From Tortispora ganteri (lineage: Eukaryota), in NCBI GenBank assembly GCA_003707115.1, contig PPNB01000005.1:186001-250000 (forward strand): a stretch of DNA of 64,000 bases. The letters are read 5' to 3'. Below are positions 3,200 to 57,301 of the stretch, one piece after another. The position numbers and the translations under genes are program-made. A model generated the notes under the pieces. The model searched no databases. It was not told where the DNA came from and was given only the letters and a program-made list of their open reading frames with translations. How positions within the stretch are numbered: the stretch's first letter is position 1; each line of letters starts with the position of its first letter.

Positions 3200-3609
3200 G
3201 TCTTTGTCTGACTCTTCCCAGGCTCTCCCAATCGGTACTAGTTCCTTCTCGTAACAACGACAACTAATAAAGTTACCCCCTCTACCGCTGCTTGCGCCCA
3301 TTCCTTCTTCGGATTTCTTCTATCCGATCTTCTTGCCATGCTATTAGAGACTCTGAAATTAGAAAAACTCCTTTAGTTTCTCATATTTTGTATTCTGATA
3401 ACTTTACATGCAAACTAAAACCATGTATTCTGTCACCAGGCCATCATGTTCCTGGTATCATCCCTGGTCAACAACATCATGCTTATGCTAGATAGACATC
3501 TTTACTATAATGGAAACGATGGCCACTCAAACTCATCGGCACAAATAGAGCTTATACAGGAGCTTATTTAGTAACTAGCCCCTCGCGGAAACTCGCGGCT
3601 CTTGAATAT

Positions 3610-3725
3610 TCATAAGATAAGGTTCCAAATACAACAAGCTCCACAAACCATAGCCTAGTTTCTGAGTAACCTTATCAATCCTGTATGTCAACGGCGATAA
3701 GACATGCGAACCAATATAAATACCT
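3610..3725 (+). promoter_or_regulatory. GATA sites and TATA box upstream of amidase 1
   Basis: GATAAG near 3616 and 3696, CTTATC near 3670, TATAAATA near 3715; similar GATAA/TTATC clusters precede amidases 2 and 3. Confidence 0.5.
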
Positions 3726-3772
3726 CTTAACTTCTCTTAGAATGTACAAGCTTCTAAGTTTAGCACTGCAAA

Positions 3773-5401: not shown

Positions 5402-5962
5402 TTGTGTGTCCAGTTTTAAATAGCATATAACATGCTAATAATTTGTCTAGTAGCATTGCCCAACCTTTGTAGTGTTGTTCTACCGAAGCAGCGTTTAAGA
5501 CTTTTATTCAGCAAATATCAACAGAAGCAGATACTCTGAACCTACTTTGTAGACTCCTAAACGACAGTCGATCAGATATGCAGTAAAGTGTCCTAATGTT
5601 ATCTTCTAATCTGTTGCATAGGAGGTTCCATCAAATCAGACTCAAGAGATCCGCGACAAGCGCTAGACATTGCTGTCCAAATAACCGTAATATTCTTTAA
5701 GCCGCATAAGAGTTTCCTACATTATCAAATAGATAAGAAAAACTCACGCGTGGCAAAGTACTATCGTTAATATCACCGCGATACAGAGATAAAGTTTCGA
5801 AAACATAGAATGGACCAATCGTGACCATTCACGACAAGTGTCGCCGGAAAGTGGGGCTAACAACCTGGCACAAGATTATCAACCGAGAGAAACTCAGAAT
5901 TATGAGTTCCATATTTAACCACACAAATACCTCTCAAGTTAGCATTTCCTTATCTTTTTACA

Positions 5963-7582: not shown

Positions 7583-8183
7583 ACGAGATTTAGTTATGTG
7601 AGCAATAAGTAAATACATTGTCACGTGTATTGTCAAGACCATATCTTTAAAAGAAATCTCCGCGTAAGCTATCAATAACCTTAATCTATCTATAAGGTTG
7701 AAATTGTAAACGAAGCAGGTTTACTCTTATCTGTAGACTAAACAGGAACAGAGATGTGAGTCCATCTCCAGAAGATAACGATCCGATGTGATTGAGTTAG
7801 TAGAAATAAACTTTCATCCAATTATGGACCACACCGATAACTGTATTTATTTGTGATAAATGGTATAATTCAAGCGTGTTAATTGCAGCAAATATTGTAA
7901 AACAAAAAAATCCATGATAAATCAGTATCAGGAGAATGGTTTGAATAAGTATGACAAAAGTTTTGCAGTAACACAATGGCAGTTCCAACAACAAACCAGC
8001 ATTCGGCAGGTGAATGATAACTTAAAGTTCACGTACTCGAGCGGTTTTTTGACGCTGATAGACATACCGATGTGGTTGCGCTTAACGCGTTTGACCTTCA
8101 GTTAATCATAAATTCCATTATAAATAGACATTGATTTTGTGATAAAGGGGTCAATTGCTTTCCATTGACCTGTTATCAACACA

Positions 8184-9818: not shown

Positions 9819-9964
9819 CCTGCATTTAGTTGTTGTTTTTGATAGGTATAAGAAATTGACTTGTGTTTTGACCTGTAACTTTAAAGTTTGCATCACGTGA
9901 TTCATTGATATCTTACATATATATATGTGATTCACCAGCCCGACCCACCGATCTACGAACCATC

Positions 9965-17141: not shown

Positions 17142-18611
17142 TTAGACAAGTTTAGAATCAGAATTGACTCGTTGTATTTGAGTAGAATCCATAAGTTGTG
17201 ATATATTATCATTCGTTGTGGTAAAGGCGACGTTGGACCTCGTAGCCTCATCCATAGCGATACGGCGATTATATCTGTATTTCTTTGAGGCGAAGAATGG
17301 AAGTAGAAGAATACAAGTACTGGCGATGACCGCCTGAAATATGAGTGCACGTTTCATATTTTGTGGAGGATCCCCCTTGTCTTGATCGTACCTTAAAGCG
17401 TTCATGATAATGGTAAAGATAGCACCTAAAAGTTGACCACCACACCAAAGAATTCCGGCGCTTAGTTCGTCACTGGCTGGATGGACTTGTTCCTGTGTCC
17501 ATTCGAGTACTAGTGGCAATAAAGCAAATGAACAAACACCAATAACAATACTAACAATGAAAGGGCCGATGTACTGTTTATCTGTTGAGCACATGAATAT
17601 TGCACCGATATAGGCTCCGCCGATCAGTGGAACAAGGATAAAAATGTACCATAAGAAACAATGAAACTTATCTGCTATTGGGCTGAGAACTAGGGCACCG
17701 AGTAGGCCTGCTACAATAAGCACGGCACCTGTGTAGCCAGCATCGTCGTTGGTATAGCCATAGGGAGACATGATCTGCTGGAGCAGCGATGAGAAGGCGT
17801 TAAAGAATCCGACATATACTGAGAAAATGATGGTAATGAATATGAACGCTTTATTTGTGACAAAAATTCTGAGAGAAGGCCAAAGTCCAAGTTTAGGTAC
17901 CGCTGATGAAGGCGAGCTAGGGTATTTTGGACTAGCGGGAACAAATATGGCAGTAACTGAGCAAGCACAGATAATTATAGTGGTATAAAGAGTCATTCTA
18001 GGTACATCTTGAGGATTAGTACAGAAGAGAGGGCTGATAAGATTAGCAAGAGCTCCGCCGACCGGATTGGATAATGACATGAGAGCATTTGCGGAGACGC
18101 GCGATTTGGTGGTGAACCAAAGTCCTGAGTAATGTGTAGGAACAATCAACATAAAAGGTTGAGCAAACCCAAGAAAGATTTGACCTAGCATTACAAGTGC
18201 GAAAATTCCACCATTATCTTTACGCGCATAAGTTCCAGCAACACGGAGTACTGATCCGATAATATTAAGCCCTGCACCAGTACATACCGTAATTCTGATT
18301 CCTAGATGGTGAAGCACATAGGAGCAAAGTGGAGTTATTACAATAAATGCAAAAAAGAAAGATATCGATAACCAATTTATTGGTGTATATGAACTCATAT
18401 GGAAGAATTTATAGCTATTATCGGCGACTGGAGCGTATGTGAGCCAACCCCAAGAAACAGAGATATTTAGGAGCATGATAACTACTACACCAATCCAGCG
18501 TTTTCGGTATATTTTGTAAACAGGATACGTCGATTGTTCAGATAGCACTGTTTGTACAAGTTCTATATTTGGACTGTCGTCATTTTTGCGGAACAAATTC
18601 AAGAAAAACAT
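17142..18611 (-). CDS. MFS transporter, FLVCR/SLC49-like
   Basis: About 12 hydrophobic segments; YKIYRKRW, WLTYAPVA, GQIFLGFAQPF, WFTTKSRVSANALMSLSNPVG, PKYPSSPSS. Confidence 0.85.
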   Translation of the reverse strand: MFFLNLFRKNDDSPNIELVQTVLSEQSTYPVYKIYRKRWIGVVVIMLLNISVSWGWLTYAPVADNSYKFFHMSSYTPINWLSISFFFAFIVITPLCSYVLHHLGIRITVCTGAGLNIIGSVLRVAGTYARKDNGGIFALVMLGQIFLGFAQPFMLIVPTHYSGLWFTTKSRVSANALMSLSNPVGGALANLISPLFCTNPQDVPRMTLYTTIIICACSVTAIFVPASPKYPSSPSSAVPKLGLWPSLRIFVTNKAFIFITIIFSVYVGFFNAFSSLLQQIMSPYGYTNDDAGYTGAVLIVAGLLGALVLSPIADKFHCFLWYIFILVPLIGGAYIGAIFMCSTDKQYIGPFIVSIVIGVCSFALLPLVLEWTQEQVHPASDELSAGILWCGGQLLGAIFTIIMNALRYDQDKGDPPQNMKRALIFQAVIASTCILLLPFFASKKYRYNRRIAMDEATRSNVAFTTTNDNISQLMDSTQIQRVNSDSKLV

Positions 18612-21600
18612 GTTTTCACGATAAGAATAAGCTGAATGGCCTAAAGATAAGAAGACTTGGGGTTGAACACGTTTTGAACTTTAATTTCAATTATTGTACT
18701 AATTGGTTCATTTGCGTATGTGCGAACTGCAGTGGTAAGCAATCAAAATGTGTTTATGATAGTTTTGGTTGATTATAGTGATAGTATATTAAATAAAATA
18801 AAAAAAAATTACATTACATAGTAGTATAGAGTGGAGGTATGTTGTATGTAGGTGGAGAGTTATAAATGTGATCTGGTAATGTCGTAGTTATTACGCAATC
18901 AGCAATTTCGGATGAGTTTTAAGTATATTCAAATCAATCAATTTAAAAAACTAATCATGTAACATTTAAAGAAATGTATTAAATTCAACAAAATTTACTA
19001 CGGTATGAAATTAAGAATGGCACCTTGGCAAGTCGATCATTCACGAGCGGGTTAGTTAGATAGTTACGGAGGAGAGAGCAGTAGTAAATAGTTAACAAGA
19101 AGGTTATTTTGGTATCAAAGTGATTACAATTACTAAAAATAAATAATCGAACTGATCCTAAGAAACGATAAATCAAGTATACAGAAGTATACAGAAGTCT
19201 GAATGTCATATTGGTGGAGGAAACAAAGTTTATATGACAGGGCTCCAAGACGTCTAGAGATGTAAAACTTACACTCTAAACCAGTTGGTGGTAGATTTCG
19301 AGAGTCAAATTTGATAGTTTTTATTAAACCGATAAGTAATGGTCACTATAAATTAAGTATATTTAAAATTTCAAGTAGTAATATTGCCCACCCACAACAA
19401 CGAATAGGGTATTGTTAGTTCACCAAAATAGCACTAGTCTTAAATTGTCAATAGTGTTAAGTAAAAAGTTAAATGAATCTTTAAATAGATTAACGTTCGA
19501 AATACAACTTGAAGTTTATTAACGATTAAGTTACATGTTGGCAGTGCGCTAGTCAACCGGTTATGTCTTGGCTTTCTTTATCTCTTACTTAGCTATCGAT
19601 AATATCGATTTTTCTTATTGCGGCTGATAGCGTATGCTAATCGATATAATGCAAATACAATCTTTTGATAGAAAAAATTATTAAATTACTCTGTATTTTT
19701 AAGCTAATTTTGTGGGTAATGATATATTGAGGACTACATTGTAATGCCCCTCTTTCGTATGTTATGAACATTGAACTGTTAAAAGGATTTTCGAAATGGT
19801 AGAGAATATGGATACGACTGAATTACTTAATTATAGTTTAGTTTGTAAATAATTGAATAGAGTTTTAATTTAAATTATTGGATAAAAAGTTATGCGCTAT
19901 TACTGGCAGGTTGTAATGAAAGAACAGCTTGGTATGTGTATAGCAGAATTACTCGAGTTTCGCCAAAAGCAAAAAACACCAAAATAAAATTATACCTTGC
20001 ATTATATCTATTAATTAAAAATAAATTAATTGATCGATATAAGAGATATAAAGATTTTATATGAGAATTGAACATGGAATAACCATGAAGTGATGTAAGT
20101 AGAAGAATTTGAAGTTACGACCTATAAGCTCTAAGAATACGGGATTTGAATGAAGTATAATTGATATTCTGAAATTATTGAAATTATCAAATAGTTAATC
20201 GCTCACACGTGTATAAGTGAGGAAGTTTTAACTATTTATGAAAAGTGAAAACTGTCAGACGTATATACGTAAGAAAGTACGATGTAAAGGATTAGTGACG
20301 TAGAACTTCATATGACAATTTACTCAAAATAGAATTATTTATTGATTTTTAATCTAAATATCAAACCAAGCAAAAGTGTAATTTCAATTGCCGGTTGATC
20401 ATTATTGGTACAAACAGAAATGTAAAATCTTATTATCGGAAATACATTCCCTATAGTGAAATAAGAGACTAGATAATTATATGGATTGATTAATATGCGA
20501 TCAAGATAAAAATATGAATATATCAATTATTATTCTAGTTATTATTACTGGTATGAAAAAATCACTGTAAATATTTAACATTCCATAAACGGTCGACTTT
20601 GTGTATAATAAAGGTTAAGAGAGAAATGAGATTTGAAAGACAAAAATAAGCTGACCATTTTAAAAAGACTAACTTTAATTATGAGAAGATAGAGTAGTAT
20701 TACTCCAGCCAAAACGACCAAAATAGAAAAAGCAAGTAAAAAGACTACCATAAAATGAAGTCATTCTAAAAATTCATTATAATGAAGATCTCGACCGAAA
20801 TTATTATTGTAACGCTAAATATTAATTGTTGTAACATAAACAACTAATCAAACAATATCTCATAATTAAATAAAGAATTGATCTAAATATATAAATAAAT
20901 CCTAGATTTAGTAAATATCCCTTTCACTCATATCAGTTTTGTGAATCTAATTATATAACTTCAATTCATATTATCTATCGTGATTCATATTATCGATCGT
21001 TACAATTCATATTATCGATCATTACAATTCATATCTCATTGATTTTTTTTGTCTGATAGATATTCAAATTACATTATATTCTTAGATTACATTCTCTTCT
21101 TAGCATTCTTGCTAAATTTACGTAACTTTTACTTTTTTTCTACTTTATTTCCCTTTCATTTCCGTTTCTTATCTTTTCGCCTCGTTTATTGCTTACCATT
21201 TCCATTTTTTTGCCTTAATCCTAATTTGGCTTACACTTTAAGTTGTCATATTCCTGCTGACACTACGTGAACTTTATCTAAATAATTTGCTTCATTCAAT
21301 CATTAGACTTATTCGAACTGCTTTTCGCTTTTATTTCAAAACATTATCGACACTTTTACCTAACTGGTTACTACCAGTTTACCCTTATTCAAGGTAAAAC
21401 ACCCTACTTCAACTTCAAATCTACCACTTATTCAAATTGAACTTTATATCTTTTAAAGTTATTTCATACAGATTTATAGTTCCTTGTTCATACGGCCACT
21501 TTAGCTAATCTTAAAAAGGATATTTCTAATCCACCTATTAGCGAGTCAAACTGACACCATCATATCCGAGTTGGCTCTAATATCCTTTGTCCTTTTTACT

Positions 21601-21851
21601 ATCATCATTTCATTCATTACTCACCTTTCAATACTGATATTGGTTACTTTCTTTTCATAAATTACTTCACTGCTTCGCCACTTTCGCTCGGTCGCTATTT
21701 GATCGCGCCCTACAATTCATCTAACTTTCTACCGCGCCTATTCAGCCTCTCACGTTCTCACATTGCACGTGCGTTCTGCTGACTGTTCCAACTTCGCCTC
21801 CTAGGTTTCTCTCTGTCTCTTGCAGGACCCTCCTGCTGAGACTTTGTCATC
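18612..21851. other. 3.2 kb AT-rich, ORF-free intergenic block between divergent genes (candidate centromere or long divergent leaders)
   Basis: Longest non-coding stretch in the window; for example 20821-20880 has 11 G+C in 60 nt; no credible ORF. Confidence 0.4.
20962..21034. repeat. Imperfect tandem repeat, about 3.5 copies of a 20-22 bp unit (CAATTCATATTATCGATCRTTA)
   Basis: ATTCATAT recurs at about 20964, 20983, 21005 and 21027. Confidence 0.85.
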
Positions 21852-28633: not shown

Positions 28634-30103
28634 TTAAACCTCAGCGGTGGGAGCGTCTGACTTCTCTTCAGGCATCGGGGTAACAACGCCCGAAGGGGCA
28701 GTAACACCAGCTTTGCCGTGAACAAAAGAAACGTCATACGTCTCAAAGACTTTGTCAAGAGAGATCTCTCCAATGGTTTCGCCACCCATTTGGCAGTAAT
28801 CGAGGCCGGCGAGTTCATCTTCCTCAGAGACACGGAACTTAAGTCCAGGAATGTAATTGATCATATTGAAGAGGATGGATGTGACGACAATAGACCATCC
28901 GAAAATGACGAGAATTTCTGCTATCTGCCATCCGAGCTGAACGTAATTGTGGTTCAACCAACCTTGTGCATCAGTACTGCCATCGAGTAACGAGACCCAA
29001 TTATTGGCGAAAAGACCAGTGAAGATAGCACCCCAGGCACCAGCAATACCGTGCAGACGGTAGACATCCAAACCCTCATCGATTCTGATCCAGAGCGTAA
29101 GGTTTTCGCAAGCAGCGCAAATACCGGCAACAAGGAAACCGATAATGGCAGCAAAGTATACAGGAACGAAACCAGCAGCCGGTGTAATACCGACTAATCC
29201 GGCAATTATACCTTCGCAGGCACCCGGGAGTGTGAAATGCCTACCCTTCATGAAGTACTCAACGAAGGAGTATCCAAGCATACCAGTGGAGGCAGCAAGA
29301 TTAGTATTGACAAGGGCGTAACCAGCGCGTACAGTGGCATTACCAGTGGAGCCACCGTTGAATCCAAACCAGCCGAACCAGATAAAGCAAGTACCAATGA
29401 ACATGAGAGTGGAATTGTGAGGCTTGTTACGTTGGACCTTCTTCTCTTTGGTTTCGGGATCGATGCGCTTGCCGAGCCAGAATGCGACAGCAAGAGCGGA
29501 AAATCCTGATGACATGTGCACAGGGCCACCACCGGCGAAATCAAGGGCTCCGTGGGAAGCTAGCCAGCCGTTGCCATTCCATGTCCAGTAGGCGACAGGG
29601 CAGTACACTACCGTGCACCAGCAAAAGGCGAACAACATGAGTGGTACAGTTCTAGCACGCTCGAAGAAACCGCCAATCATAATCATGACCGTGCAGACAG
29701 CGAACATGCCTTGATAGAAGCAGTATACGATCTCAGGAAGGTAGCCGACCGGAAGAGCTACGACATTCATTAAGGCGAAGGCATCAAGATTTCCAAGAAA
29801 AACTGAGGAAGAAGTGTGTGAATAGACGAGGGAATATCCCCAGAAGAACCATTGAAACGATATAAGCGATGAAACCATTAAACAGTTCCATAACATGGTA
29901 GCACCGGAAGTGCGCTTACCTTGGCCAGCATATAGCAGACCCAGACCAGGAACAATGTACCAGACAAGCGCGCCGGCAACCATAATCCAGACATACTGGA
30001 AACCGACACCAGCTTCGACGTATGGGAGGTTGATGTCATATACATGTGAGTTACCTCCAGCAGCGGTCCACTCATCAGCAGGAATAGTTGGTTCAGCACT
30101 CAT
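28634..30103 (-). CDS. MEP: Ammonium transporter, Amt/Mep family
   Basis: FQWFFWGYSL, DFAGGGPVH, WFGWFGFNGGS, AGLVGITPAAG, LHGIAG; GATA sites and TATA box in the upstream region. Confidence 0.96.
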   Translation of the reverse strand: MSAEPTIPADEWTAAGGNSHVYDINLPYVEAGVGFQYVWIMVAGALVWYIVPGLGLLYAGQGKRTSGATMLWNCLMVSSLISFQWFFWGYSLVYSHTSSSVFLGNLDAFALMNVVALPVGYLPEIVYCFYQGMFAVCTVMIMIGGFFERARTVPLMLFAFCWCTVVYCPVAYWTWNGNGWLASHGALDFAGGGPVHMSSGFSALAVAFWLGKRIDPETKEKKVQRNKPHNSTLMFIGTCFIWFGWFGFNGGSTGNATVRAGYALVNTNLAASTGMLGYSFVEYFMKGRHFTLPGACEGIIAGLVGITPAAGFVPVYFAAIIGFLVAGICAACENLTLWIRIDEGLDVYRLHGIAGAWGAIFTGLFANNWVSLLDGSTDAQGWLNHNYVQLGWQIAEILVIFGWSIVVTSILFNMINYIPGLKFRVSEEDELAGLDYCQMGGETIGEISLDKVFETYDVSFVHGKAGVTAPSGVVTPMPEEKSDAPTAEV

Positions 30104-35453: not shown

Positions 35454-37127
35454 ATGGACCTAGAAAACAAAGCAGATGCTGATGGCTTTATCCCAATCCT
35501 CTCGCACTCTGACGAATCTAAGTTCGAAAAACGTCTTTATGATAATGAGGAACAAACTAGAATCATTACTGGCGAGGAAATCGTCACCTCTGAAGGTGTA
35601 AAGCGCGGCCTCAAAGTTCGTCATGTATCTATGATCGCCCTAGGTGGCACTATAGGCACAGGTCTATTTATCGGTACAGGAGAAGCACTCGCAAATGCTG
35701 GACCTGCTGGTATCTTTATTTCTTATATCTTTATGGCTACTATCGTCTTCTCTATCGCCCACTCGCTCGGCGAAATGGCTGCTTTTATACCGGTCTCAGG
35801 CTCTTTCGCTCAGTTCACTTCTCGCTTCTTGCACCCGTCTTTGGGTTTCGCAATGGGCTGGCTTTACTGGTTTTCTTGGGCAATGACTTTCGCAATAGAG
35901 GTCAATGTCGCAGGTCTCGTTATCCAGTATTGGACAGATGCTGTCCCGATGGCCGCATGGATCACTATCTTTCTCGTTTGTCTGTCTGCAATCAACTACT
36001 TCCCCGTCAAGTTTTACGGTGAGATCGAGTTCTGGATTGCATCTATCAAGGTCATCGCAATTGTTGGATGGCTCATCTACGCCCTTTGCATGGCCTGCGG
36101 TGCAGGCGACGACGGCGCAGTCGGCTTTAGGTACTGGAGAAATCCAGGCGCATTTGGCCCTGGTTATTATGCAAGCGACCCGGACCTCGCTAAATTCCTC
36201 GGATGGGTCACCTCCCTCATCAACGCAGCTTTCACCTACCAGGGTACAGAGCTTGTTGGTGTCACCGCAGGTGAGAGCGCAAACCCGCGTAAGGCCGTTC
36301 CTCGTGCTATCAACAAAGTCTTTTACCGTATTGCCATCTTCTATATCCTTTCGATCCTTTTCATGGGTATGCTTGTACCATATAACAGTCCTTATCTCAT
36401 GGGCAACGAAGAAGAAGACAGCAGTTACGTATCAACTTCGCCATTTATTATCGCAATGCAGTACGCCGGTACGCCTGTCCTTCCCGATATCTTCAATGCT
36501 GTTATTTTAACCACCATCATCTCGGCAGGCAACTCCAACGTGTATATTGGTGCTCGTATTCTGATGGCTTTAACGATAAGTGGAAATGCCCCTAAGTTCT
36601 TCGGATACACTAACAAATTTGGTGTCCCCTATGTCGGTGTTACCTTCACTGCTCTTTTTGGTGCACTCTCCTACATGAATTTATCTGCAGGAGCCACATC
36701 TGTTTTCAACTGGTTTGTGAATATCACTACTGTTGCTGGACTAATCACTTGGGCTCTAATATCTTTTAGTCACATCCGTTTTATACAGGCTCTGGATGCG
36801 CAAGGTTTTAGACGGGATGACCTTCCTTTTAAGGCTCTCTTTATGCCATGGTACGCTTGGTACGCTGGAATATGCATCACTATCATAGTATTTGTTCAAG
36901 GATTCACAGCGTTCCTTCCTTGGAAACCTGTCGACTTTGTCATCAACTACTTGTCTCTTTTTATCTTTATCGCCTTGGTCGCTATTCATCTGCTCATCTT
37001 CCGCCAGCCTTTCCTGCATCCGGTAGAAATGGATCTCGACACTGGTCGTCGCGAAGTTGACGCATTGGTATGGGATGATCCTCCACCTAAGAATCTCTGG
37101 GAGAAGTTCTGGTACTATGCCGCTTAG
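35454..37127 (+). CDS. Yeast amino acid permease (YAT family, Can1/Lyp1-like)
   Basis: KRGLKVRHVSMIALGGTIGTGLFIG, FYGEIEFW, GFRYWRNPG, QGTELVG, GESANPRK, WEKFW. Confidence 0.93.
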   Translation: MDLENKADADGFIPILSHSDESKFEKRLYDNEEQTRIITGEEIVTSEGVKRGLKVRHVSMIALGGTIGTGLFIGTGEALANAGPAGIFISYIFMATIVFSIAHSLGEMAAFIPVSGSFAQFTSRFLHPSLGFAMGWLYWFSWAMTFAIEVNVAGLVIQYWTDAVPMAAWITIFLVCLSAINYFPVKFYGEIEFWIASIKVIAIVGWLIYALCMACGAGDDGAVGFRYWRNPGAFGPGYYASDPDLAKFLGWVTSLINAAFTYQGTELVGVTAGESANPRKAVPRAINKVFYRIAIFYILSILFMGMLVPYNSPYLMGNEEEDSSYVSTSPFIIAMQYAGTPVLPDIFNAVILTTIISAGNSNVYIGARILMALTISGNAPKFFGYTNKFGVPYVGVTFTALFGALSYMNLSAGATSVFNWFVNITTVAGLITWALISFSHIRFIQALDAQGFRRDDLPFKALFMPWYAWYAGICITIIVFVQGFTAFLPWKPVDFVINYLSLFIFIALVAIHLLIFRQPFLHPVEMDLDTGRREVDALVWDDPPPKNLWEKFWYYAA

Positions 37128-37273
37128 CTGATGGTTTACGGAAATTTTATAACATTACTTTGAAGCCGATATTGTAGTGATTGTCACACAATTTCTTTAT
37201 AATTAGATAATTTAACCTTAATAAACTGTAAGCATCTTAGATACTTCTTTTCGCGCTCCTACGCAGTTACTAA

Positions 37274-37345
37274 GGTTGTATAGTGTAGTGGTTATCACTC
37301 CGGATTTTGATTCCGGCAACCCCGGTTCGAACCCGGGTACGACCT
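37274..37345 (+). tRNA. tRNA-Gln (anticodon UUG), no intron
   Basis: GGTTGTA/TACGACC acceptor stem, CCGGA-TTTTGAT-TCCGG anticodon arm, GGTTCGAACC T-loop, T-run terminator at about 37352. Confidence 0.97.
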
Positions 37346-37568
37346 CACTAATTTTTTTATTTTTATAATTATTTTATTGCTTCAAAGTATGTATTTGAAG
37401 TATATTAAGACTTTCTCTGTTTTACTTTTTCGTCTGTGCCTCTAATTGTTATTAAATGTTGCGTGCGGCATCTTCTTACCCTGATCTCCAGTCGCCAACC
37501 ACACCGTCATCGGCAACCTATACTTCGTCTTATACACTGCTTTATTAAGTTCAACCTCAACGACTATA

Positions 37569-47993: not shown

Positions 47994-48716
47994 TTAAAGA
48001 AGTTTGTTAAGTCGGGCAACAATTCCGTCATCGGGATCTGTTAGTTTTGACAGCATCACGATGCGCGACTCAAGTAGGTCTATCCGTAGACGGTCTTTTG
48101 ATAGACCCTTATGATAAGCCCGTATTTTCGTTTCTATATCTGACTGGCGTGCGTACTGTTGTCTGTAATGTTCTATTTCAGCAATTATACTATGCCGTTG
48201 CTCAACTAGTTCGTTAAGCTCATTGGTCAACTGTGTTATGGTGAATGAAGTTGTATGACCGTTAGAACTGTCATAATTCTGCGATAATGAATTTTCATTT
48301 ATCAAATTTTCATGTTGCAAAACATCATCCTTCAGTAGCGATTTGTCCTCGTGGTCTGAATCGTGGTCTGAATCGTGGTCTGAATCCGTATCGAGCAGTT
48401 GTACGGGGAGGTCAATCTCAGATCGGCGCTGAGTTCTGAGTTGCGGAAGTTTTTGTGCATCTATTTGATGTTGCAGTACAGTATCTATTTCCAAAACACC
48501 TGATACTTTCCTGTTTGCAGCACCTCTTAATTTCGCGTTACGTTTCTCTAGCCGTGTATTGCGTGCTTGACTAGTGAATATCGATCCGCGAGTCTTGACG
48601 GCAGCAAGTGTACCACCGTCCACAGCAGTCTCACCGGCAATATCGGGTGTATCAGATATCTTGTCATTGGCAAATTCTCTGAGTTTTTTGTGTACCTTGT
48701 CGTTTCGGCGATTCAT
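47994..48716 (-). CDS. Hypothetical protein with C-terminal coiled coil
   Basis: About 240-aa ORF from ATG 48716 filling the gap between genes; heptad-like C-terminus; no confident family. Confidence 0.65.
   Translation of the reverse strand: MNRRNDKVHKKLREFANDKISDTPDIAGETAVDGGTLAAVKTRGSIFTSQARNTRLEKRNAKLRGAANRKVSGVLEIDTVLQHQIDAQKLPQLRTQRRSEIDLPVQLLDTDSDHDSDHDSDHEDKSLLKDDVLQHENLINENSLSQNYDSSNGHTTSFTITQLTNELNELVEQRHSIIAEIEHYRQQYARQSDIETKIRAYHKGLSKDRLRIDLLESRIVMLSKLTDPDDGIVARLNKLL
48349..48386. repeat. 12-bp coding tandem repeat TCGTGGTCTGAA x3 (encodes DSDH)
   Basis: Exact units start at 48349, 48361 and 48373. Confidence 0.9.
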
Positions 48717-49300: not shown

Positions 49301-49975
49301 TTATGCCTTCTCCATGGGGCGCATCTTTTCTGTGTCTATGAAGCAGCATATGCCCATGAACGCATCAAAGAGTGCCCTTCTGTAGTACACTTGCGGAACG
49401 TATCCGGACGCACTGAACTCTTTCTGGTCTATGATTTTCTCGTTGAGCGGGTCGTGCAGGTTATCGCTTAGAGTGATCAACGCATTAATACCTCTATCAC
49501 CGTTGAACGGTGTGAACGGCGTCGCGGGTACGCCACCTATATCTTTCTTTGGCTTATGAAGTTCCGTTTTGACGGCTCGTTGAGCCTCTAGTTTTGCTTC
49601 CATCTCGCTGACATTAATACCATTCACTAAATTGAACACTATATCCTCGATCTCTTCCAAGTATGCATTATACTCCTCCAGACTGTCGAAATCCTGTTCA
49701 GTCTTTTTGTACACTTTCATTACCCGCGCCCGGCAGTCGACCTCCTTCTCTACGCCAATATCATCAAACATCTGTTCCTTGAACTTATTCTTACGCAGGA
49801 TCTTGTCGCATCCAGGATACGGACATGGGCCAGGCCCGTAGGAGAAGATCCGGTCGACACAGTTGGAACACATCTTGTGGTAGCACTCCGTGTTGATCAA
49901 GAATCTCATCTCCGGATTTAAATATCGGCTTGATTTGCAAACATAGCATACGTCTTCGTCCTCTTTGCCCGCCAT
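49301..49975 (-). CDS. TFB3: TFIIH/CAK RING subunit MAT1
   Basis: CYVCKSSRYLNP, CYHKMCSNCVDRIF, CPYPGC, LRKNKF, EYNAYLEEIEDI. Confidence 0.95.
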   Translation of the reverse strand: MAGKEDEDVCYVCKSSRYLNPEMRFLINTECYHKMCSNCVDRIFSYGPGPCPYPGCDKILRKNKFKEQMFDDIGVEKEVDCRARVMKVYKKTEQDFDSLEEYNAYLEEIEDIVFNLVNGINVSEMEAKLEAQRAVKTELHKPKKDIGGVPATPFTPFNGDRGINALITLSDNLHDPLNEKIIDQKEFSASGYVPQVYYRRALFDAFMGICCFIDTEKMRPMEKA

Positions 49976-50210
49976 TTCATTCTATTCTTTTTGATTTAAC
50001 GACAGAGCCTATGTGTAGCGTTCCGTTAACCACTGTTTTGTCGGTCCTAACGAACTGGCTGCCAGTCATTTACAAACCTTATTTTCTGTACCCCCGCTGT
50101 TATTGGTCTATTATATGATTCACTTCCCTCCACAACTTCTCCAACGCACTTGTCTTTTAACAGAAACTTGTACTGCTACTGCTCTCTACTCTCTGCTTTC
50201 CGGATACATT

Positions 50211-51923
50211 ATGCTAGAGCCTATACAGGACCCTAAGCTTATTATACGCCGTAAAGCGAACCGTGTCTCGAGGGCATGCGACTTCTGCCACAAGAGAGGT
50301 GTACGCTGCAAGCCTATGCCTGGGGTAGATCCTTCAGTGTTGTCTAACTGTTTGACCTGCTACGAGCACAATGTTTCTTGTACATACACGAGACCTGGCC
50401 GTAAGCGTGGATCGAGAGCACGAAGCTCATCACCCTCTTCCTGTTCCTCTTCTTCTGTCACACGCGCTGAATCAGGCGGCCTTCCGCTACCTAATTACGT
50501 TCGTGCTAATTCTGATTCTTCTTATTCCTCGCGCTTCCAGAAGATTCACCCGGATACAGTACGTGCCCTCGTCAACATATATTTTGACACAATATATCCG
50601 ATATTTCCCTTCTTTGACGAAGGTGTGTTTATGCAAGACTATAAACAAAGAAAAATACCCAGCGACAGCGCCAGTTACGCTGCACTCATGGCCATGTGTG
50701 CACTCAGCTCTGCCCATGTAGCTGACGGAACAGTTTTTAACCAAGATCTCGTTATTCCTGCTGCAAAAGCAATTAATCATCAGTTTTTCATAGACGAAGC
50801 ACAGACTTTTTTGCCTAAGAACATTACCGACTTTAACAGAACAGAATACATACAATGTCTAGGCCTGCTTTCGCTAACTGGCACCCACACTTCTAACCCG
50901 CACCTGATTCACTACTATTTAGGTCTTTATAACGCTGTCGTTTGCCACTTTGGTTTGTTTGATGAGTCCCGGTGGGACCGATCTTTTTCTCTAGCTGAAA
51001 GAGAAATCCGCAGAAGACTCTATTGGTCATTATACCGTCTCGAAGTGCACTCGGCGGTCATCTACACACATATGCCTCGCATCTCGGACACTTACTCGGC
51101 AGTGGAGTATCCAGTACCGAGTGGGCTCTTCACACGTGACTATACCGATAACTGTTCTGGCGATAACTGGCTTACAGGTTGGAACGTCATTACGGATTTA
51201 TATCGTATTCTCGAGCACGCACTGGAACGATTCAAGACATCACGGCCTCCTGATCTGTCACTCGGTATTGCCAACCCATATGCGTTGCCCTATGAGGAAG
51301 TATGTTATGCCGACGAGATTCAGAATAGAGTTCCCTACGAGTTCCGAACGCCAATGCCGAAATCGGCAAATGTAGAACAGAACCGCAAAGGGTTCCAGGT
51401 GTCGAATATTGTGTGCACGTTACGGCTGCTAAAGATGGTTTGTTTTGTCGCCGATGGGCAGTCGCTTGCGAAGGCATGCAAAGTTGCAATTGATCTCATT
51501 GACGATTGTGAAATTATACCTATCGAATACTTTCGCGCAATTGGTAGTCCTATGTTCCAAGAATTGTCAGGAATTGGCTACATTTTAAGTAGCATTGCTG
51601 GCGCCTCGCTGTCAATAGAGCAGTATAATGAAATACGCATTGTACTCATAAGGATGGCTGATTTTCTGGACAAATGCGACATACGATTAATATCTACGTC
51701 TCAACGCGCTGGACCTCAATTCAGGGAATACGTTGCGCAAGTGGATGATCTCGTCCGCAAAACTCATGAATCGGCCACGAAAGACTTGTCTATGCCGCAT
51801 GACTTTGAACATTCGAACCCGTCTATGGCTAATGATACAGTCAAGCCCTTGGAGGCAATAGAAGGAGCTAACTACGAGATCCAATTTCCGTATAACTTAT
51901 TTGGAGATATGACATTTTATTAA
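50211..51923 (+). CDS. Zn(II)2Cys6 transcription factor with fungal-specific middle domain
   Basis: RACDFCHKRGVRC...CLTCYEHNVSCTY; YFDTIYPIFP; EREIRRRLYWSLY; start at ATG 50211 (alternative 50115). Confidence 0.93.
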   Translation: MLEPIQDPKLIIRRKANRVSRACDFCHKRGVRCKPMPGVDPSVLSNCLTCYEHNVSCTYTRPGRKRGSRARSSSPSSCSSSSVTRAESGGLPLPNYVRANSDSSYSSRFQKIHPDTVRALVNIYFDTIYPIFPFFDEGVFMQDYKQRKIPSDSASYAALMAMCALSSAHVADGTVFNQDLVIPAAKAINHQFFIDEAQTFLPKNITDFNRTEYIQCLGLLSLTGTHTSNPHLIHYYLGLYNAVVCHFGLFDESRWDRSFSLAEREIRRRLYWSLYRLEVHSAVIYTHMPRISDTYSAVEYPVPSGLFTRDYTDNCSGDNWLTGWNVITDLYRILEHALERFKTSRPPDLSLGIANPYALPYEEVCYADEIQNRVPYEFRTPMPKSANVEQNRKGFQVSNIVCTLRLLKMVCFVADGQSLAKACKVAIDLIDDCEIIPIEYFRAIGSPMFQELSGIGYILSSIAGASLSIEQYNEIRIVLIRMADFLDKCDIRLISTSQRAGPQFREYVAQVDDLVRKTHESATKDLSMPHDFEHSNPSMANDTVKPLEAIEGANYEIQFPYNLFGDMTFY

Positions 51924-51936
51924 ATTAAGTGGACAG

Positions 51937-52941
51937 CTAAGACATGTTATAAGTGCTTTGAATTCGTTGTCTCAAATGCTCGCCAGACGTGATTTTGTCT
52001 TTAGAAGTGTAACCTTTGGTTTTGACAACCTCGTCGAACCTCTTCTGTGACTCTTCGTCATCCTTGAGGAGCGGTTCGAGTACAAAGTCGTCATTAGGTT
52101 GGACGAAATAAGGGATTGAAAATCTGCTGCCTGATTCTTTCTCATTGCGTGGAAACGCGACTCGGTGAAGTGTGGAGCTCAGTTGTCCTGCAGTCCAGAA
52201 CTCGAGGGCGTCCCCGATATTGACAACGACTGCTCCAGGGATTGCAGGCACGTCAATCCATTGACCATCTGTGGATTTTACTTGCAGCCCGCCCTTATCG
52301 GACTCCTGCTGGTATAGCAGGGTGATTGATCCGTAGTCGCTGTGGATTCCAGCTCGAACCTCCATATCATCTTCTACCTCGCTGCCCTCTGGCGGTGGTG
52401 TGGGGATATCATGGATGTCAATTTGCGGGTAGTGGATCAAACGCATTCTGTTATGGCTTCCGGAGTGTGCGTCGACCAAATAGGTTTCTTCCAGACCGAG
52501 ACCCTTAGCGAACCCTTTGAGCAACTGGTCGGCGAGATTTTGCGTCTGTGTGAAGAACTCCTGGAGATCGGTTCTGTTTGTTTCGAGAAGGTTTGGGAGC
52601 TTGTCCATATCAGTAACGTTCTTCATATAATAGGACTCCTTAAGGTCGCCCTTACCTTTACTGGAAAGCTTTTCGTCGCGCAAAGCGGTGTATCCGAGGT
52701 CGCCAGACCCGTTATGGAATTGCATTTTCTCGTCAATGGTGGATGTCAAGAAGAAGTGACTGCAGATCGCGAACATGTTCTCGATCATGGCGCGGGTGAT
52801 GTTGTGGTTGACGACATAGAAGAAGCCAGGATTGCGGCCGACCTTCATGAGGGCTTTACCGAGTTCATCGGGCGACTGGTATAAACTGAGATCGATTATT
52901 GGTAGGGATTGCATTGCGGTAGAGAGATAAGAAGGATCCAT
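51937..52941 (-). CDS. 2-oxoglutarate/Fe(II) dioxygenase (DIOX_N/IPNS-like fold)
   Basis: LPIIDL, GFFYVVNH, GDLKE, MRLIHYP, HSDYGSITLL (HxD), VNIGDALEFW, LHRV (distal His), RFS (2OG-binding RxS). Confidence 0.93.
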   Translation of the reverse strand: MDPSYLSTAMQSLPIIDLSLYQSPDELGKALMKVGRNPGFFYVVNHNITRAMIENMFAICSHFFLTSTIDEKMQFHNGSGDLGYTALRDEKLSSKGKGDLKESYYMKNVTDMDKLPNLLETNRTDLQEFFTQTQNLADQLLKGFAKGLGLEETYLVDAHSGSHNRMRLIHYPQIDIHDIPTPPPEGSEVEDDMEVRAGIHSDYGSITLLYQQESDKGGLQVKSTDGQWIDVPAIPGAVVVNIGDALEFWTAGQLSSTLHRVAFPRNEKESGSRFSIPYFVQPNDDFVLEPLLKDDEESQKRFDEVVKTKGYTSKDKITSGEHLRQRIQSTYNMS

Positions 52942-54049
52942 TGCTGTATATAAAATGAGAACAATGGATGCAGTTTACCAGTTTAGCCGCCTCTTCCGTT
53001 CGAAGTTCTGAATAATGCCAAGCAGTAGCTGAGTGTTTATTCGTGCTCGGCAGGGATCGAATTAACAGCAGGCCAAATAGCATTCCGGCGGTTTGTTACA
53101 GATAAGATAGCAGGCAAAGCTTAAACGGCTGTCGGTTAAACTGCTAAATATATTTTGCCGGTAGTTACTGTCAACAGCCGCATGTATGCAGTGCGAAAAC
53201 GAAGCAAGTGCGAGGCAATAACAATTAGCTTTTTATCTTTTGTTATCTGTTATCTATGCTTTTTTACTTGCAATACATTTAGCAGGAATATGCACCATTT
53301 TACAGGCGTGGGGTGGAGAATTGTGCGAAGTTCCTTAAACTCTAATACTGCCGAGAAAGTATCTTAAGAGCAATATGAGGAACGCGTTCATGCAACGCAA
53401 TACGCATGCTAGGCTTTGTTAAAAAAAGGGGAAAATATGGGCAATGAATGTATATTAATAAATTATGGAAATGATATAACCTATAGTAATGTAATGGTTT
53501 ATTATGATCGTATGGACACTTCATTGCAACAAATGGAAAATCCTGGTGTCATTAGCTTTGGCGTGCTGTAACCTTATCTCGAGGATCCTATTGGCTCCAC
53601 CAGGAACGGAGTTCCAACAACAATGATTTGTTCACGGCATCCCTTACATTGAGCAGATATCTACTTATGGATATTCGGCTTGCTTCTCTTAATAACTGTA
53701 TTTTTTTTTGCTTATCTTTTTTATTTAACCGAGATTAGAAACAGTTTTGATTAGATCAAAAAGTTTTGCCTAAGACAATAAATAAAACCTTATAATATTA
53801 ATCACACACCCTAACGCTATCTACCTTTTTCTCACTTCAATTTTTTGCATTTTAAGCACCAGGCCGTGCGAATATAAAAACCCCACTCTGTCCTCCAAAT
53901 AAGATATCATAGATCCTTGTTACATTCGATATCTATTATCGACAAAAATAGCGGGCACTTAGTTGCTCTTTATCTCCTTTTATTTGCAGCATCTCTTGCA
54001 CCTTGTCAAACCATAGATCGTGCCTGCACTTCTCTTTAACTGATAAATA
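52942..54049. promoter_or_regulatory. Divergent promoter shared by the dioxygenase and the NCS1 permease
   Basis: GATAAG 53101; TTATCT at 53233, 53243 and 53250; CTTATC near 53572 and 53711; clustered CGG/CCG triplets 52987-53180; TATAAAAA 53873. Confidence 0.55.
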
Positions 54050-55747
54050 ATGGGCCAGAAGAACGTTATTAAACGGTTCGCCAAATGGATCGAGATCCCT
54101 GTTGATCCAAATTCTGTCACTACTACGGCATCTTACAACCGCGACACTATGCCTCTCCCGCCATCTAGGCGTACCTACGGTCCCTGGCAGTTCGTCGGTC
54201 TTTGGATCGTCACCGGCTCCTTCAATATCGGTGGCTGGACCACCGGCTCCTCTGTTATGGCCTTGGGACTCAACGTCTGGCAGGCTATGATTACTGTCAT
54301 TGTTGGTCACTGTATGGTCGCAGGTATCTGTCTTCTCTCCGGATTCCCGGGTGCTAAGTGGCATATCGGTTTTCCTATTCTTCAAAAATCCTCTTGGGGC
54401 ATGTACGGTGGATATTTCCCGCTCATCAACCGTATCTTCCTTAGTTTTATTTGGTACAGTACACAAGTCTGGTGGGGTGGTCAATGTATTAAGACATTCT
54501 TGACCGCAATCGCCCCAAGCTATAGAAGCCTCAACAAACCTTTAGCCAACGGTACAATGACAACAGGAGACTTCACTGCCTTTATTATATTCTCGATTCT
54601 TTGTTTGCCTATTATCTGGATCCCGCCAGAGCGCTACCACAAATTTTTCGCCGCTTCTGCCCTTATGGTCATTCCCTGTGTCTTCGCACTGCTCGGATGG
54701 TGCGTCGCCACAGCCGGCGGACCTGGCCCGCTAGTTACCGACCCTACGGCCGTAGGTATTGAGGAACCTACAGGTTCTAATCTTGGCTGGATGTTTGTTC
54801 TCGGTATCGTCTCGAATATAGGTGGTATCTCTACACATATCTTCTCGCAGTCCGACTTCACCAGATTCGCTAGAAAACCCGCTGACCAGGTTCTCTCGCA
54901 AGCCGTCATGGTTCCCCTTGGTACTATTGTGGTTTCCTTAATCGGAATCATTTGTACTTCATGTGCAGCTCAGATCTTCCCCGATGCAGGATACCTCATG
55001 TGGGAACCATTTGATCTGCTAGCCCACATTCAACTTAATTTCAACGACTCCTCTAGATCGCGTTGTGCTGTCGCTTTTGCCAGTATTTGTTTCATTATGT
55101 CTCAGTTCGGTATTGCTGTTGCTGAGAATGCTTTGTCGAATGGTATCGATCTCTCTGGTTTGTTGCCGAGGTACTTTAACCTGCGCAGAGGTGGTTATTT
55201 GACAGCCGCTATTGCTTTTATCATGCAGCCCTGGCAACTGCTTAACGGTGCGTCAAAATTTTTATCTGTGGTTGGCGGCTATGCTGTTTTCCTCGGCCCA
55301 TTTTCCGGTGTGATGTTTGCCGACTACTACTATGTACGCCGTCGGAATCTTAAGTTGTCGCACTTGTACGAAGCTACAGAGGCAAGTATTTACTGGTACA
55401 CAAAAGGTGTGAACTGGAGAGCGCCAGTCTGTTGGATCATGGGAGTTTGGCCGTTATTGCCTGGGTTTGCGTGGTACGTACAGCATGGTGCGGGTCCGGA
55501 TAACATGGGTGGCTGGTCACACTTGTATTATCTTTCGTGGATTCTTGGATGTCTTATTTCGTTTGTACTCTATGCGGCGTCGTCGCATATATGGAAGTTC
55601 AAGGATCCAAAGGCTGTGGATGACGAAGACTACTTCGGCACATTCACTGAGAAGGGTATCACACAGCCTCCTGAGATGGAAGTGATCGCGGCCTCTGACG
55701 ACTCTTCTCTGGCAACAGAGGAGCAGGAGACGTTCATCAAGGACTAA
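54050..55747 (+). CDS. NCS1 nucleobase-cation symporter (Fur4/Dal4/Thi7-like)
   Basis: NRDTMPLPPSRRT, GLNVWQA, GAKWHIGFP, SDFTRFA, GIDLSGLLPRYFNLRRG, QPWQL, GVMFADYY, YWYTKGVNWRA. Confidence 0.93.
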   Translation: MGQKNVIKRFAKWIEIPVDPNSVTTTASYNRDTMPLPPSRRTYGPWQFVGLWIVTGSFNIGGWTTGSSVMALGLNVWQAMITVIVGHCMVAGICLLSGFPGAKWHIGFPILQKSSWGMYGGYFPLINRIFLSFIWYSTQVWWGGQCIKTFLTAIAPSYRSLNKPLANGTMTTGDFTAFIIFSILCLPIIWIPPERYHKFFAASALMVIPCVFALLGWCVATAGGPGPLVTDPTAVGIEEPTGSNLGWMFVLGIVSNIGGISTHIFSQSDFTRFARKPADQVLSQAVMVPLGTIVVSLIGIICTSCAAQIFPDAGYLMWEPFDLLAHIQLNFNDSSRSRCAVAFASICFIMSQFGIAVAENALSNGIDLSGLLPRYFNLRRGGYLTAAIAFIMQPWQLLNGASKFLSVVGGYAVFLGPFSGVMFADYYYVRRRNLKLSHLYEATEASIYWYTKGVNWRAPVCWIMGVWPLLPGFAWYVQHGAGPDNMGGWSHLYYLSWILGCLISFVLYAASSHIWKFKDPKAVDDEDYFGTFTEKGITQPPEMEVIAASDDSSLATEEQETFIKD

Positions 55748-55912: not shown

Positions 55913-57301
55913 ATGAATATTGACGATCGAAATTCGTATATTTTGGACATTCTGTCGCATTCTTTGCAGGCTCTAGACGGTATCGATTCCGAAACGACTA
56001 TGGTGAGTCTCGGGTGTGGGTATTTTGCGGAAATGAGTATACCTGATGCGCGGCAATTCCTGACACGCAAGATCAACTCTTTAACGCCGCAGAACGAGCA
56101 ACTAATGACTTCTGATGGTCTTCCTACTGTCGATATTGTTGAGAAGATTGATGAGGATGGAAATGTGATAGAATCGAGTGTTAGGCCGCACGATATAAGT
56201 GATCTGCAGAGCTTTGCTGAATCGAGTCTCAGACAGCTTCGCAATAAGTCGAGTAACCACGAGAATAAAAGCGATCATGAGACTGAAAGCGATCATGAGA
56301 ATAAAAGCGATCATGAGAACGAAAGCGATCATGAGAATGAAAATACAAATATTCTTGAAAGTGAAAAGACCGCCGCTGTTACACCAGCAAGTCTTAACGA
56401 TTCAACTCCTATTGAGAAGATCGAAACCACAGAATCAAGAGATGTTTCACAATCGCCCATTTCTACTGAAAACGAGTTCCCTAACGATATAACTAAATCG
56501 ATGATGGAAATAGAGGAACTGGCAGCGCAAGCATTGACTTTTGAAGTCGATATAGATGAAGACGAAGACGACGATTACTACGATATAGACACCGAAGATG
56601 AAGACGAATTTGGCCGAACAAGGGGCACTTTGTTTCCTTTTGACGCGGCTAAGCTGTTAAATTTGAAAGATACTGAAATTGAAGGAAGTGGTTCTAATTC
56701 AGGTGAAAGCTCAGATACGAGCTCGAAGAAGAACGTACGGTTTTCTGAAAGTATTGATGTTGTGCGATTCAAGAAGAACCAAGCAGTAAAAATGCCAGCT
56801 AAATCACATGCAAACCGCTCTAATTCTTCTAAACTACCATTGAAATCGTCAATCAAGAATACAGAGCCCTTTAGGTCTGAGATCATTATTCCGGAATCAA
56901 CCAGTACCGACGGCTCGGCGGCAGAATTCCAGAACCGAGCTATGGAACTGCTAAATTCTCTTGAAAAACAAAAATCAAGTACTGCAGTGGTTTCCGATAT
57001 ATCTGAAGTACAGCACGAGTCTTCTTCGTCTTCTGAAGAAGAATATGACGATGTCTCGTTTTCGAAACCTGTACTTTCAGATATCATTGAACATACCGAT
57101 TCCGACACGTTCAGTAGCGATTCCGATGATGAGTACGACTCAGATTTAGAACGCGAGAAAATATCTGCGGCGTATCATCAACAAAGACAGAAAATGCTGC
57201 TGCAGCAGATGTCCTATGCCGAAAGGGCTAAGGTCGACGAAACACAGAACGATCCTGATGTTCCTAGAGCTAGCCTGTTCCGCAGATCACGACTAGGCTA
57301 A
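55913..57301 (+). CDS. BUD27: Bud27/URI prefoldin-like protein
   Basis: Alpha-prefoldin motif MVSLGCGYFAEMS...FLTRKI; acidic tract with EDEFGRT; KKNVRF (PP1-type RVxF); C-terminal SLFRRSR. Confidence 0.8.
   Translation: MNIDDRNSYILDILSHSLQALDGIDSETTMVSLGCGYFAEMSIPDARQFLTRKINSLTPQNEQLMTSDGLPTVDIVEKIDEDGNVIESSVRPHDISDLQSFAESSLRQLRNKSSNHENKSDHETESDHENKSDHENESDHENENTNILESEKTAAVTPASLNDSTPIEKIETTESRDVSQSPISTENEFPNDITKSMMEIEELAAQALTFEVDIDEDEDDDYYDIDTEDEDEFGRTRGTLFPFDAAKLLNLKDTEIEGSGSNSGESSDTSSKKNVRFSESIDVVRFKKNQAVKMPAKSHANRSNSSKLPLKSSIKNTEPFRSEIIIPESTSTDGSAAEFQNRAMELLNSLEKQKSSTAVVSDISEVQHESSSSSEEEYDDVSFSKPVLSDIIEHTDSDTFSSDSDDEYDSDLEREKISAAYHQQRQKMLLQQMSYAERAKVDETQNDPDVPRASLFRRSRLG
56261..56340 (+). 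repeat. 18-bp coding tandem repeat, about 4.4 copies (SDHE[NT][KE])
   Basis: AAAGCGATCATGAGA recurs four times with an 18-nt period. Confidence 0.9.

Follow-up and report, generated by a model that had tools for sequence, protein, structure and literature searches.

A conserved regulator, oxygenase and permease gene cluster in the yeast Tortispora ganteri as a putative module for uptake and oxidation of a nitrogen-containing ring compound

Gene clusters that combine a regulator, an enzyme and a transporter are a known class in fungi. A related case is the DAL allantoin cluster of Saccharomyces, in which the Fur-type nucleobase:cation symporter-1 (NCS1) permease Dal4 lies within a nitrogen-catabolic cluster; DAL encodes amidohydrolases, contains neither an oxygenase nor a regulator, and is a young cluster of a single yeast lineage. 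Here, we describe a cluster of Tortispora ganteri that likewise contains an NCS1 permease, in this case next to a Zn2Cys6 regulator and an Fe(II)/2-oxoglutarate oxygenase. It is located in a window of 64,000 nucleotides (contig PPNB01000005.1, positions 186,001 to 250,000 of the forward strand), and all positions below refer to this window. The cluster is a real, conserved, ancient and undescribed instance of the known class, and our literature search found no description of this regulator-oxygenase-permease arrangement among the records listed, in agreement with an original prediction for this DNA that had not recognised it as a described yeast pathway. We consider it slightly more probable than the alternatives combined (about 0.55) that the three genes form a conserved module which takes up and oxidises a small ring compound.

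The nearest analogue in its mode of working appears to be the hxn nicotinate cluster of Aspergillus nidulans, where the transporter gene hxnP and the oxygenase gene hxnY share a bidirectional promoter and respond to the pathway regulator and to the GATA factor AreA, as described in PMC5746545 and PMC8478523. Both systems comprise a clustered pathway regulator, a transporter and an oxygenase with DIOX_N and 2OG-FeII_Oxy domains, and both have a bidirectional promoter. According to the same two reports, hxn is under nitrogen control through a GATA factor and occurs patchily in Saccharomycotina and widely in Pezizomycotina. In contrast to the Zn2Cys6 regulator and NCS1 permease of the present cluster, the hxn regulator HxnR is a Cys2His2 protein and the transporters HxnP and HxnZ belong to the major facilitator superfamily (MFS) (PMC5746545). 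Membership in the hxn cluster was rejected because the regulator and transporter families differ, and no molybdenum hydroxylase or other hxn gene was found near the cluster. Relatives were taken from 120 matches listed per protein, on which all counts below rest; the first 54 oxygenase matches listed, which make up the orthogroup, contain no Aspergillus protein, and an identity of the oxygenase with hxnY was rejected for this reason.

The features of the locus are as follows.
50211..51923, plus strand: Zn2Cys6/Fungal_trans regulator, 570 amino acids from the ATG at 50211 (open reading frame (ORF) and Pfam)
51924..51936, no strand: spacer of 13 bp between the convergent stop codons of regulator and oxygenase
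51937..52941, minus strand: Fe(II)/2-oxoglutarate oxygenase of the isopenicillin N synthase (IPNS)/DIOX_N subfamily, 334 amino acids (ORF and Pfam)
52942..54049, no strand: divergent promoter of oxygenase and permease, 1108 bp between the ATGs, GATAA-rich
54050..55747, plus strand: Fur-type NCS1 permease, 565 amino acids (Pfam Transp_cyt_pur)
49301..49975, minus strand: left boundary, TFB3/MAT1-like housekeeping gene (Pfam MAT1 and RING finger zf-C3HC4_5)
55913..57301, plus strand: right boundary, BUD27/URI-like prefoldin gene (Pfam Prefoldin and DUF3835)

ORFs were called with the standard code and ATG starts, and regulator, oxygenase and permease are encoded by three uninterrupted, intron-free ORFs between the TFB3-like and BUD27-like genes. 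The layout given by the original prediction, i.e. a transcription factor, a dioxygenase and an NCS1 transporter between TFB3 and BUD27 with 13 bp between the stop codons of the first two and a divergent promoter of 1.1 kb, is borne out by three real, Pfam-backed genes and by measured distances of 13 bp and 1108 bp.

Linkage of orthologues in other genomes was read from locus tags and from contigs of identical size in bp. In Tortispora caseinolytica, the best matches of oxygenase, permease and regulator (89%, 93% and 92% identity) are all found on one contig of 2.61 Mb, although a shared contig of megabase size indicates synteny and not adjacency. Verticillium albo-atrum encodes the oxygenase ACHAQH_007904 and the permease ACHAQH_007905 with adjacent tags on a 58,448-bp contig, and in Exophiala bonariae the permease LTR84_003468 and the regulator LTR84_003470 have near-adjacent tags. 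Oxygenase and permease share a contig in at least five cases (Tortispora, Kuraishia, Colletotrichum truncatum, V. albo-atrum and C. chlorophyti), and regulator and oxygenase in at least three (Tortispora, 2.6 Mb; C. musicola, 34.5 kb; Colletotrichum sp., 210 kb). Regulator and permease do so in at least ten cases among the matches listed, namely in Tortispora, Plectosphaerella plurivora, Talaromyces proteolyticus, Paramyrothecium foliicola, Aspergillus californicus, Sphaceloma murrayae and E. bonariae and on further contigs of 7.6, 27.5 and 98.5 kb; four of the ten contigs are shorter than 100 kb (7.6, 26.9, 27.5 and 98.5 kb). With adjacent tags in two species and these 5, 10 and 3 same-contig pairs, the locus shows the linkage across species that is expected of a catabolic cluster.

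Phylogenetic trees were calculated for samples that were picked from the listed matches for full length and taxon spread (59 oxygenases, 64 permeases and 56 regulators). In the permease tree, which was rooted by basidiomycete rows, the ascomycete matches split into a clade A of 44 rows and a clade B of 14 rows. In the regulator tree, a 12-row clade (support 91) has the window regulator and its Tortispora orthologue at its base. It also includes all five regulators that are linked to a clade-A permease and the two that are linked to the oxygenase. The regulators linked to clade-B permeases are found in a separate 16-row clade (4 of 4; support 100). Because the trees are congruent and every linked pair falls into matching clades, regulator and permease appear to have diversified together as a pair, and this congruence is the strongest argument that the two proteins may work together. 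The regulator-permease pair is thus, as judged from the trees, ancient and co-diversified, with the oxygenase as a recurrent third partner. A different enzyme seems to accompany a paralogous pair: in P. foliicola, the 759-amino acid gene model P0255 is a fusion of a clade-B regulator with an alpha/beta-hydrolase (labelled 'L-amino acid amidase'; PF12697, PF00561, PF12146), and a clade-B permease is found on the same contig. This paralogous pair may therefore have a hydrolase instead of an oxygenase as its enzyme partner.

Linkage is recurrent but not universal, and several observations speak against a three-gene module. A metagenome scan returned eight loci, of which only L001 and L002 contain close permease orthologues (64% identity) with usable flanks. 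The neighbours are ordinary genes of filamentous fungi, and no regulator or oxygenase was found within 8.6 and 1.6 kb on the two sides in L001 or within 10 kb on either side in L002, so that two of two metagenomic permease orthologues are unlinked. In addition, regulator and permease of Neocucurbitaria, oxygenase and permease of Cyphobasidiales, and the oxygenase and a regulator-like match of C. karsti are each located on separate contigs. Talaromyces, Sphaceloma and Plectosphaerella, in which regulator and permease are linked, have no oxygenase among the 120 oxygenase matches listed; the pair therefore seems able to do without the oxygenase, which might have a different substrate. The synteny on megabase contigs mentioned above belongs with these points, as do the family-wide conservation of the ligand-contacting residues and the mostly coding background of the promoter comparison, both of which are taken up below. 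The original prediction depended on orthologues being linked in other species as well, and linkage indeed recurs in distant ascomycetes, yet not in the two metagenomic loci. The unlinked metagenomic permeases are also what could be cited for a chance adjacency of three unrelated genes, but this is hardly credible considering that linkage recurs over several fungal classes and that the regulator and permease phylogenies are congruent. As a separate observation, L002 contains at 2955-3953, 6 kb upstream of the permease orthologue, a gene for an intradiol (catechol-type) dioxygenase (Dioxygenase_N and Dioxygenase_C), which is unrelated to the 2-oxoglutarate oxygenase family.

A less probable alternative, which nevertheless deserves attention, is that only regulator and permease cooperate, while the oxygenase owes its position to descent and plays an unrelated role, e.g. 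as a general oxygenase of nitrogen starvation or stress. The higher frequency of regulator-permease linkage among the matches listed (10 cases versus 5 and 3) and the pairs in species without a listed oxygenase orthologue are in line with this, and clade-B pairs seem to have the hydrolase as another neighbour. On the other hand, the Verticillium oxygenase adjoins the permease according to the locus tags, the two genes share a contig in two distantly related yeasts and two Colletotrichum species, and in T. ganteri they have a common bidirectional promoter. The same arrangement of hxnP and hxnY in Aspergillus is co-regulated, as reported in PMC8478523. The regulator-controlled module for uptake and oxidation, which had been put forward in the original prediction, was therefore kept as the most economical reading.

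The trees also bear on the origin of the cluster. In the oxygenase tree, the orthogroup comprises 39 rows with a support of 98 in the Shimodaira-Hasegawa-like approximate likelihood ratio test (SH-aLRT), and Tortispora and Kuraishia are found in a basal polytomy outside a 31-row clade of Onygenales and Sordariomycetes (support 95). In permease clade A, the two yeast lineages are likewise basal, outside a 40-row Pezizomycotina clade (support 94). Grouping the Tortispora permeases with the Glomerellales clade, a group specified once the tree was already known, was rejected by the approximately unbiased (AU) test with a log-likelihood difference of 73 (p 0.0006). Given the position of the yeast genes outside the Pezizomycotina clades and the rejection of this grouping by the AU test, the data point to an ancestral relic retained in a few yeast lineages rather than to a recent transfer. 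The third-codon-position GC content (GC3) of the three genes (0.455, 0.582 and 0.525) is unremarkable compared with the 25 other ORFs of the window (0.31-0.60), and a recent horizontal transfer was rejected on the basis of basal branching, AU test and GC3 together.

A transfer of the cluster from a filamentous ascomycete into the Tortispora lineage would explain its very patchy distribution in yeasts, since Tortispora and Kuraishia are the only named budding yeasts among the 120 matches listed per search. It would also agree with nearest proteins outside Tortispora that are mostly from Sordariomycetes among the matches listed, and with the position of the cluster between two housekeeping genes. 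We nevertheless regard it as quite improbable: in the permease and regulator trees, the yeast sequences are placed outside the Pezizomycotina clades, the nearest mould proteins show low identities of 48-50%, 63-65% and 35-37%, and the pattern fits that of the 'specifically retained ancestral genes' (SRAGs) of PMC4479816. These are described there as genes that a few basal yeasts have kept; their nearest relatives are found in Pezizomycotina, yet they themselves are placed outside that clade. In contrast to SRAGs, which are single genes, the pattern is seen here for a whole linked three-gene unit. The phylogenies that the original prediction had proposed as a check for horizontal transfer thus do not support it, and the literature search for gene transfer in Tortispora gave no prior description among the matches listed. 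It is the cluster as a whole that behaves like a specifically retained ancestral unit rather than a transferred one.

The oxygenase matches both Pfam families of its class above their cut-offs (DIOX_N, 63.8 bits; 2OG-FeII_Oxy, 82.8 bits). The iron triad H200-x-D202...H259 and the 2-oxoglutarate site R273-x-S275 are invariant in a 34-sequence alignment, so that the intact HxD..H and RxS motifs noticed in the original prediction are conserved throughout. The AlphaFold2 model has a mean predicted local distance difference test (pLDDT) score of 89.1 and a double-stranded beta-helix fold. When it was compared to the PDB by Foldseek, all 500 counted matches had an E-value of 0.001 or below, and every match listed is a 2-oxoglutarate/IPNS-type enzyme; in the ESM Atlas, the only matches were generic 'Fe2OG dioxygenase' clusters. 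By domains, motifs and predicted fold, the protein is assigned as an Fe(II)/2-oxoglutarate oxygenase of the IPNS/DIOX_N subfamily. It is 89% identical to the T. caseinolytica protein, 44% to that of the yeast Kuraishia capsulata and 42-50% to those of Colletotrichum, Verticillium, Fusarium, Coleophoma, Onygenales and Exophiala dermatitidis among the matches listed.

The nearest solved structure is thymine 7-hydroxylase (T7H) of Neurospora crassa (NcT7H; PDB 5C3P-5C3S; PMC4787775). NcT7H chains occupy Foldseek ranks 1-10 (E 4.6e-29, template modelling (TM) score 0.76-0.79, 29-30% identity), ahead of an IPNS-like protein of Pseudomonas (E 6e-25, TM 0.71). The two enzymes share the DIOX_N and 2OG-FeII_Oxy architecture, the metal triad, the 2-oxoglutarate arginines, the aromatic sandwich and a C-terminal helical lid. 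Thymine is contacted in NcT7H by the polar residues N87, E122 and N294 and held in an aromatic sandwich of F292 and Y217, as reported in PMC4787775. These residues and R190 were mapped onto the oxygenase via the pairwise alignment of the sequence search. The sandwich and R190 are retained as F279, Y203 and R167, but all three polar contacts are changed, N87 to D81, E122 to Y105 and N294 to Q281. The sandwich residues, R167 and the metal and 2-oxoglutarate residues are invariant or nearly so across the alignment; they are non-discriminating because they are kept in its bacterial and plant rows too. By sequence, T7H is not specifically the nearest relative: its score (109.9 bits) is tied with those of an ethylene-forming-enzyme ancestor (110.5 bits) and a Pseudomonas IPNS-like protein (108 bits), it takes only rank 8 for the C. 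truncatum orthologue P0014, and a sister clade of Microbotryomycetes scores only 101 bits against it. The oxygenase represents an orthogroup distinct from T7H. It resembles T7H in its predicted fold and probably binds a flat ring, but T7H orthology is not supported, because identity is only 29-30% and three of three polar thymine contacts differ.

These data bear on thymine salvage, in which the permease would import thymine or a methylated pyrimidine, the oxygenase would act as T7H in stepwise methyl oxidation, and a decarboxylase would then yield uracil. The Foldseek ranking, the presence of the metal, 2-oxoglutarate and sandwich residues of T7H (H200/D202/H259, R167, Y171, R273/S275, F279 and Y203) and that of the C-terminal helices in the model, which T7H requires for substrate binding, agree with this, and Fur-type NCS1 proteins carry pyrimidines according to PMC5307856. 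In contrast, identity is low, the sequence scores do not single out T7H, the shared residues are family-wide and the polar contacts are altered. Furthermore, the orthogroup has no Neurospora member among the matches listed, though Neurospora has T7H, and a Pfam scan of the 28 window ORFs of at least 200 amino acids gave no match to an amidohydrolase-type decarboxylase family. Thymine or a methylated nucleobase, the lead substrate of the original prediction, was therefore given up as the lead; the hypothesis is possible but doubtful and not favoured.

The permease matches Pfam Transp_cyt_pur over profile positions 1-440 of 440 (322 bits), i.e. in full length. Its identity is 93% to the T. caseinolytica protein and, among the matches listed, 61-68% to proteins of Kuraishia, Colletotrichum, Fusarium, Plectosphaerella, Verticillium and other assemblies. 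The only relative with a solved structure is the hydantoin permease Mhp1 of the same NCS1 family (PDB 2JLN/4D1A). The Mhp1 hydantoin contacts W117, Q121 and N318, i.e. Trp and Gln of transmembrane segment (TMS) 3 and Asn of TMS8, align with W135, Q139 and N360 of the permease, which are invariant across a 21-sequence alignment. In contrast, the TMS1 residue Q42 of Mhp1 aligns with N59. The profile comparison with Mhp1 gave only 94.8 bits in two stretches, with TMS6 not aligned. The conserved residues would suit a ligand with a cyclic amide or ureide structure, which is true of the NCS1 family in general; the uracil/allantoin/urate permease FurE described in bioRxiv 10.1101/2022.03.28.486045 is another member of this family. 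The source labels of the relatives (uracil, uridine, thiamine, allantoin, 'nucleoside') conflict and are uninformative on the substrate because they disagree. Retention of the three Mhp1 equivalents together with F279 and Y203 of the oxygenase supports a ring substrate as a class, but both sets of residues are conserved throughout their families and say little on a particular substrate.

The regulator shows both features of Zn2Cys6 fungal transcription factors, i.e. a six-cysteine binuclear cluster (Zn_clus, 23.6 bits, cut-off 21; pattern CX2CX6CX13CX2CX6C in the translation) and a Fungal_trans middle domain (61.7 bits). It is 92% identical to the T. caseinolytica protein and 35-37% to proteins of Plectosphaerella, Colletotrichum, Talaromyces and others among the matches listed. 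The ORF has a maximal extent of 50115..51923 (plus strand; 602 amino acids), in which the ATG at 50211 lies in frame. A start at the alternative in-frame ATG at 50115, 96 bp upstream, would add 32 residues and shorten the distance to the divergent TFB3 gene to 139 bp. The regulator model of T. caseinolytica (502 amino acids, without a recorded Zn_clus match) does not decide between the two starts.

No convincing regulator binding site was found in the divergent promoter or in the region upstream of the regulator. CGG/CCG triplets accumulate at 52987-53180, close to the start of the oxygenase gene, and no CGG-Nx-CCG palindrome stands out in the divergent promoter. The 8-10-mers shared between the two regions are AT-rich and no more frequent than expected by chance. 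The 9-mer TCGGTTAAA occurs in two copies of opposite orientation in the divergent promoter, and a few repeated 9-mers per 1.1 kb are expected by chance according to a rough estimate.

The divergent promoter contains nine GATAA sites, i.e. 8.1 per kb compared to 3.0 per kb over the window, a background that is mostly coding, while AT-rich intergenic DNA is expected to hold more sites; nine sites are reached in 2.9% of sliding 1108-bp windows. This density weakly hints at nitrogen control by a GATA factor through candidate sites. SPCC1494.01 of Schizosaccharomyces pombe is listed in a table of nitrogen-limitation-induced genes in PMC4614384. Several members of the oxygenase orthogroup are named by their sources after this gene, for which orthology to the window oxygenase is not established. 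The proposal of the original prediction that the compound serves as a nitrogen source was retained in weakened form, resting on the GATAA density of the promoter. The densest GATAA region of the window is found elsewhere, at 17201-19000 (10-12 sites per 1108 bp), where it overlaps an MFS transporter gene (17142-18611, minus strand) and its upstream region; this gene is followed by a 3.2-kb stretch (18612-21851) without an ORF of at least 200 amino acids.

Taken together, the most likely function of the cluster is to take up and oxidise a nitrogen-containing ring compound in an inducible manner. The Fur-type NCS1 permease would import a small ring compound, probably one with a cyclic amide or ureide face like that of pyrimidines, hydantoins or allantoin. 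The compound or its product would activate the neighbouring Zn2Cys6 regulator, which in turn would drive the divergent permease/oxygenase promoter. As the first step of use, the Fe(II)/2-oxoglutarate oxygenase would hydroxylate or oxidise the imported compound, and this use would most likely be nitrogen scavenging. Co-regulation, transport direction, order of steps and substrate class are what we infer from the data given above.

Further genes of the window were recorded. At 3773-12118, three tandem paralogous amidase genes (3773-5401, 5963-7582 and 8184-9818, all on the plus strand; Pfam Amidase 299-307 bits) are followed by a gene of the prolyl-oligopeptidase family (9965-12118), which looks like a local amidase expansion. 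The same window encodes an ammonium transporter (28634-30103; Ammonium_transp, 360 bits) and, in the region 35454-37346, an amino acid permease (478 bits), which is directly followed by tRNA-Gln(TTG) at 37274-37346, the only tRNA gene of the window. Two unrelated proteins that flank the cluster, encoded by the ORF at 47994-48716 and by the BUD27-like gene at 55913-57301, both contain short acidic S-D-H repeats: DSDHDSDHDSDHE in the former and NKSDHE/TESDHE/NESDHE in the latter.

The cluster provides a three-gene handle for the function of an orphan NCS1 permease clade and of an orphan T7H-like oxygenase orthogroup, both of which occur in the plant-pathogenic genera Colletotrichum, Verticillium and Fusarium and in two basal yeasts. 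The intron-free yeast version in a compact genome should facilitate genetics if the species is transformable. As the congruent regulator and permease trees show, a transcription factor and its presumed target have remained linked and have been duplicated as a pair over several hundred million years, which bears on the question of why eukaryotic metabolic genes cluster. It is a tentative and rather unlikely idea that few regulator-transporter-enzyme units surviving in Ascomycota are as old as this cluster, which would predate the split of budding yeasts and moulds and encode a so far undescribed route for the oxidation of a pyrimidine-like or ureide-like compound. A candidate for this route would be the fungal hydroxylation steps of pyrimidine nucleosides and bases, whose genes, to our knowledge, have never all been identified; our literature search on pyrimidine nucleoside hydroxylase genes returned no identification among the matches listed. 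If this holds true, functions could be assigned jointly to two orphan groups, the Fur-type permease clade and the oxygenase orthogroup.

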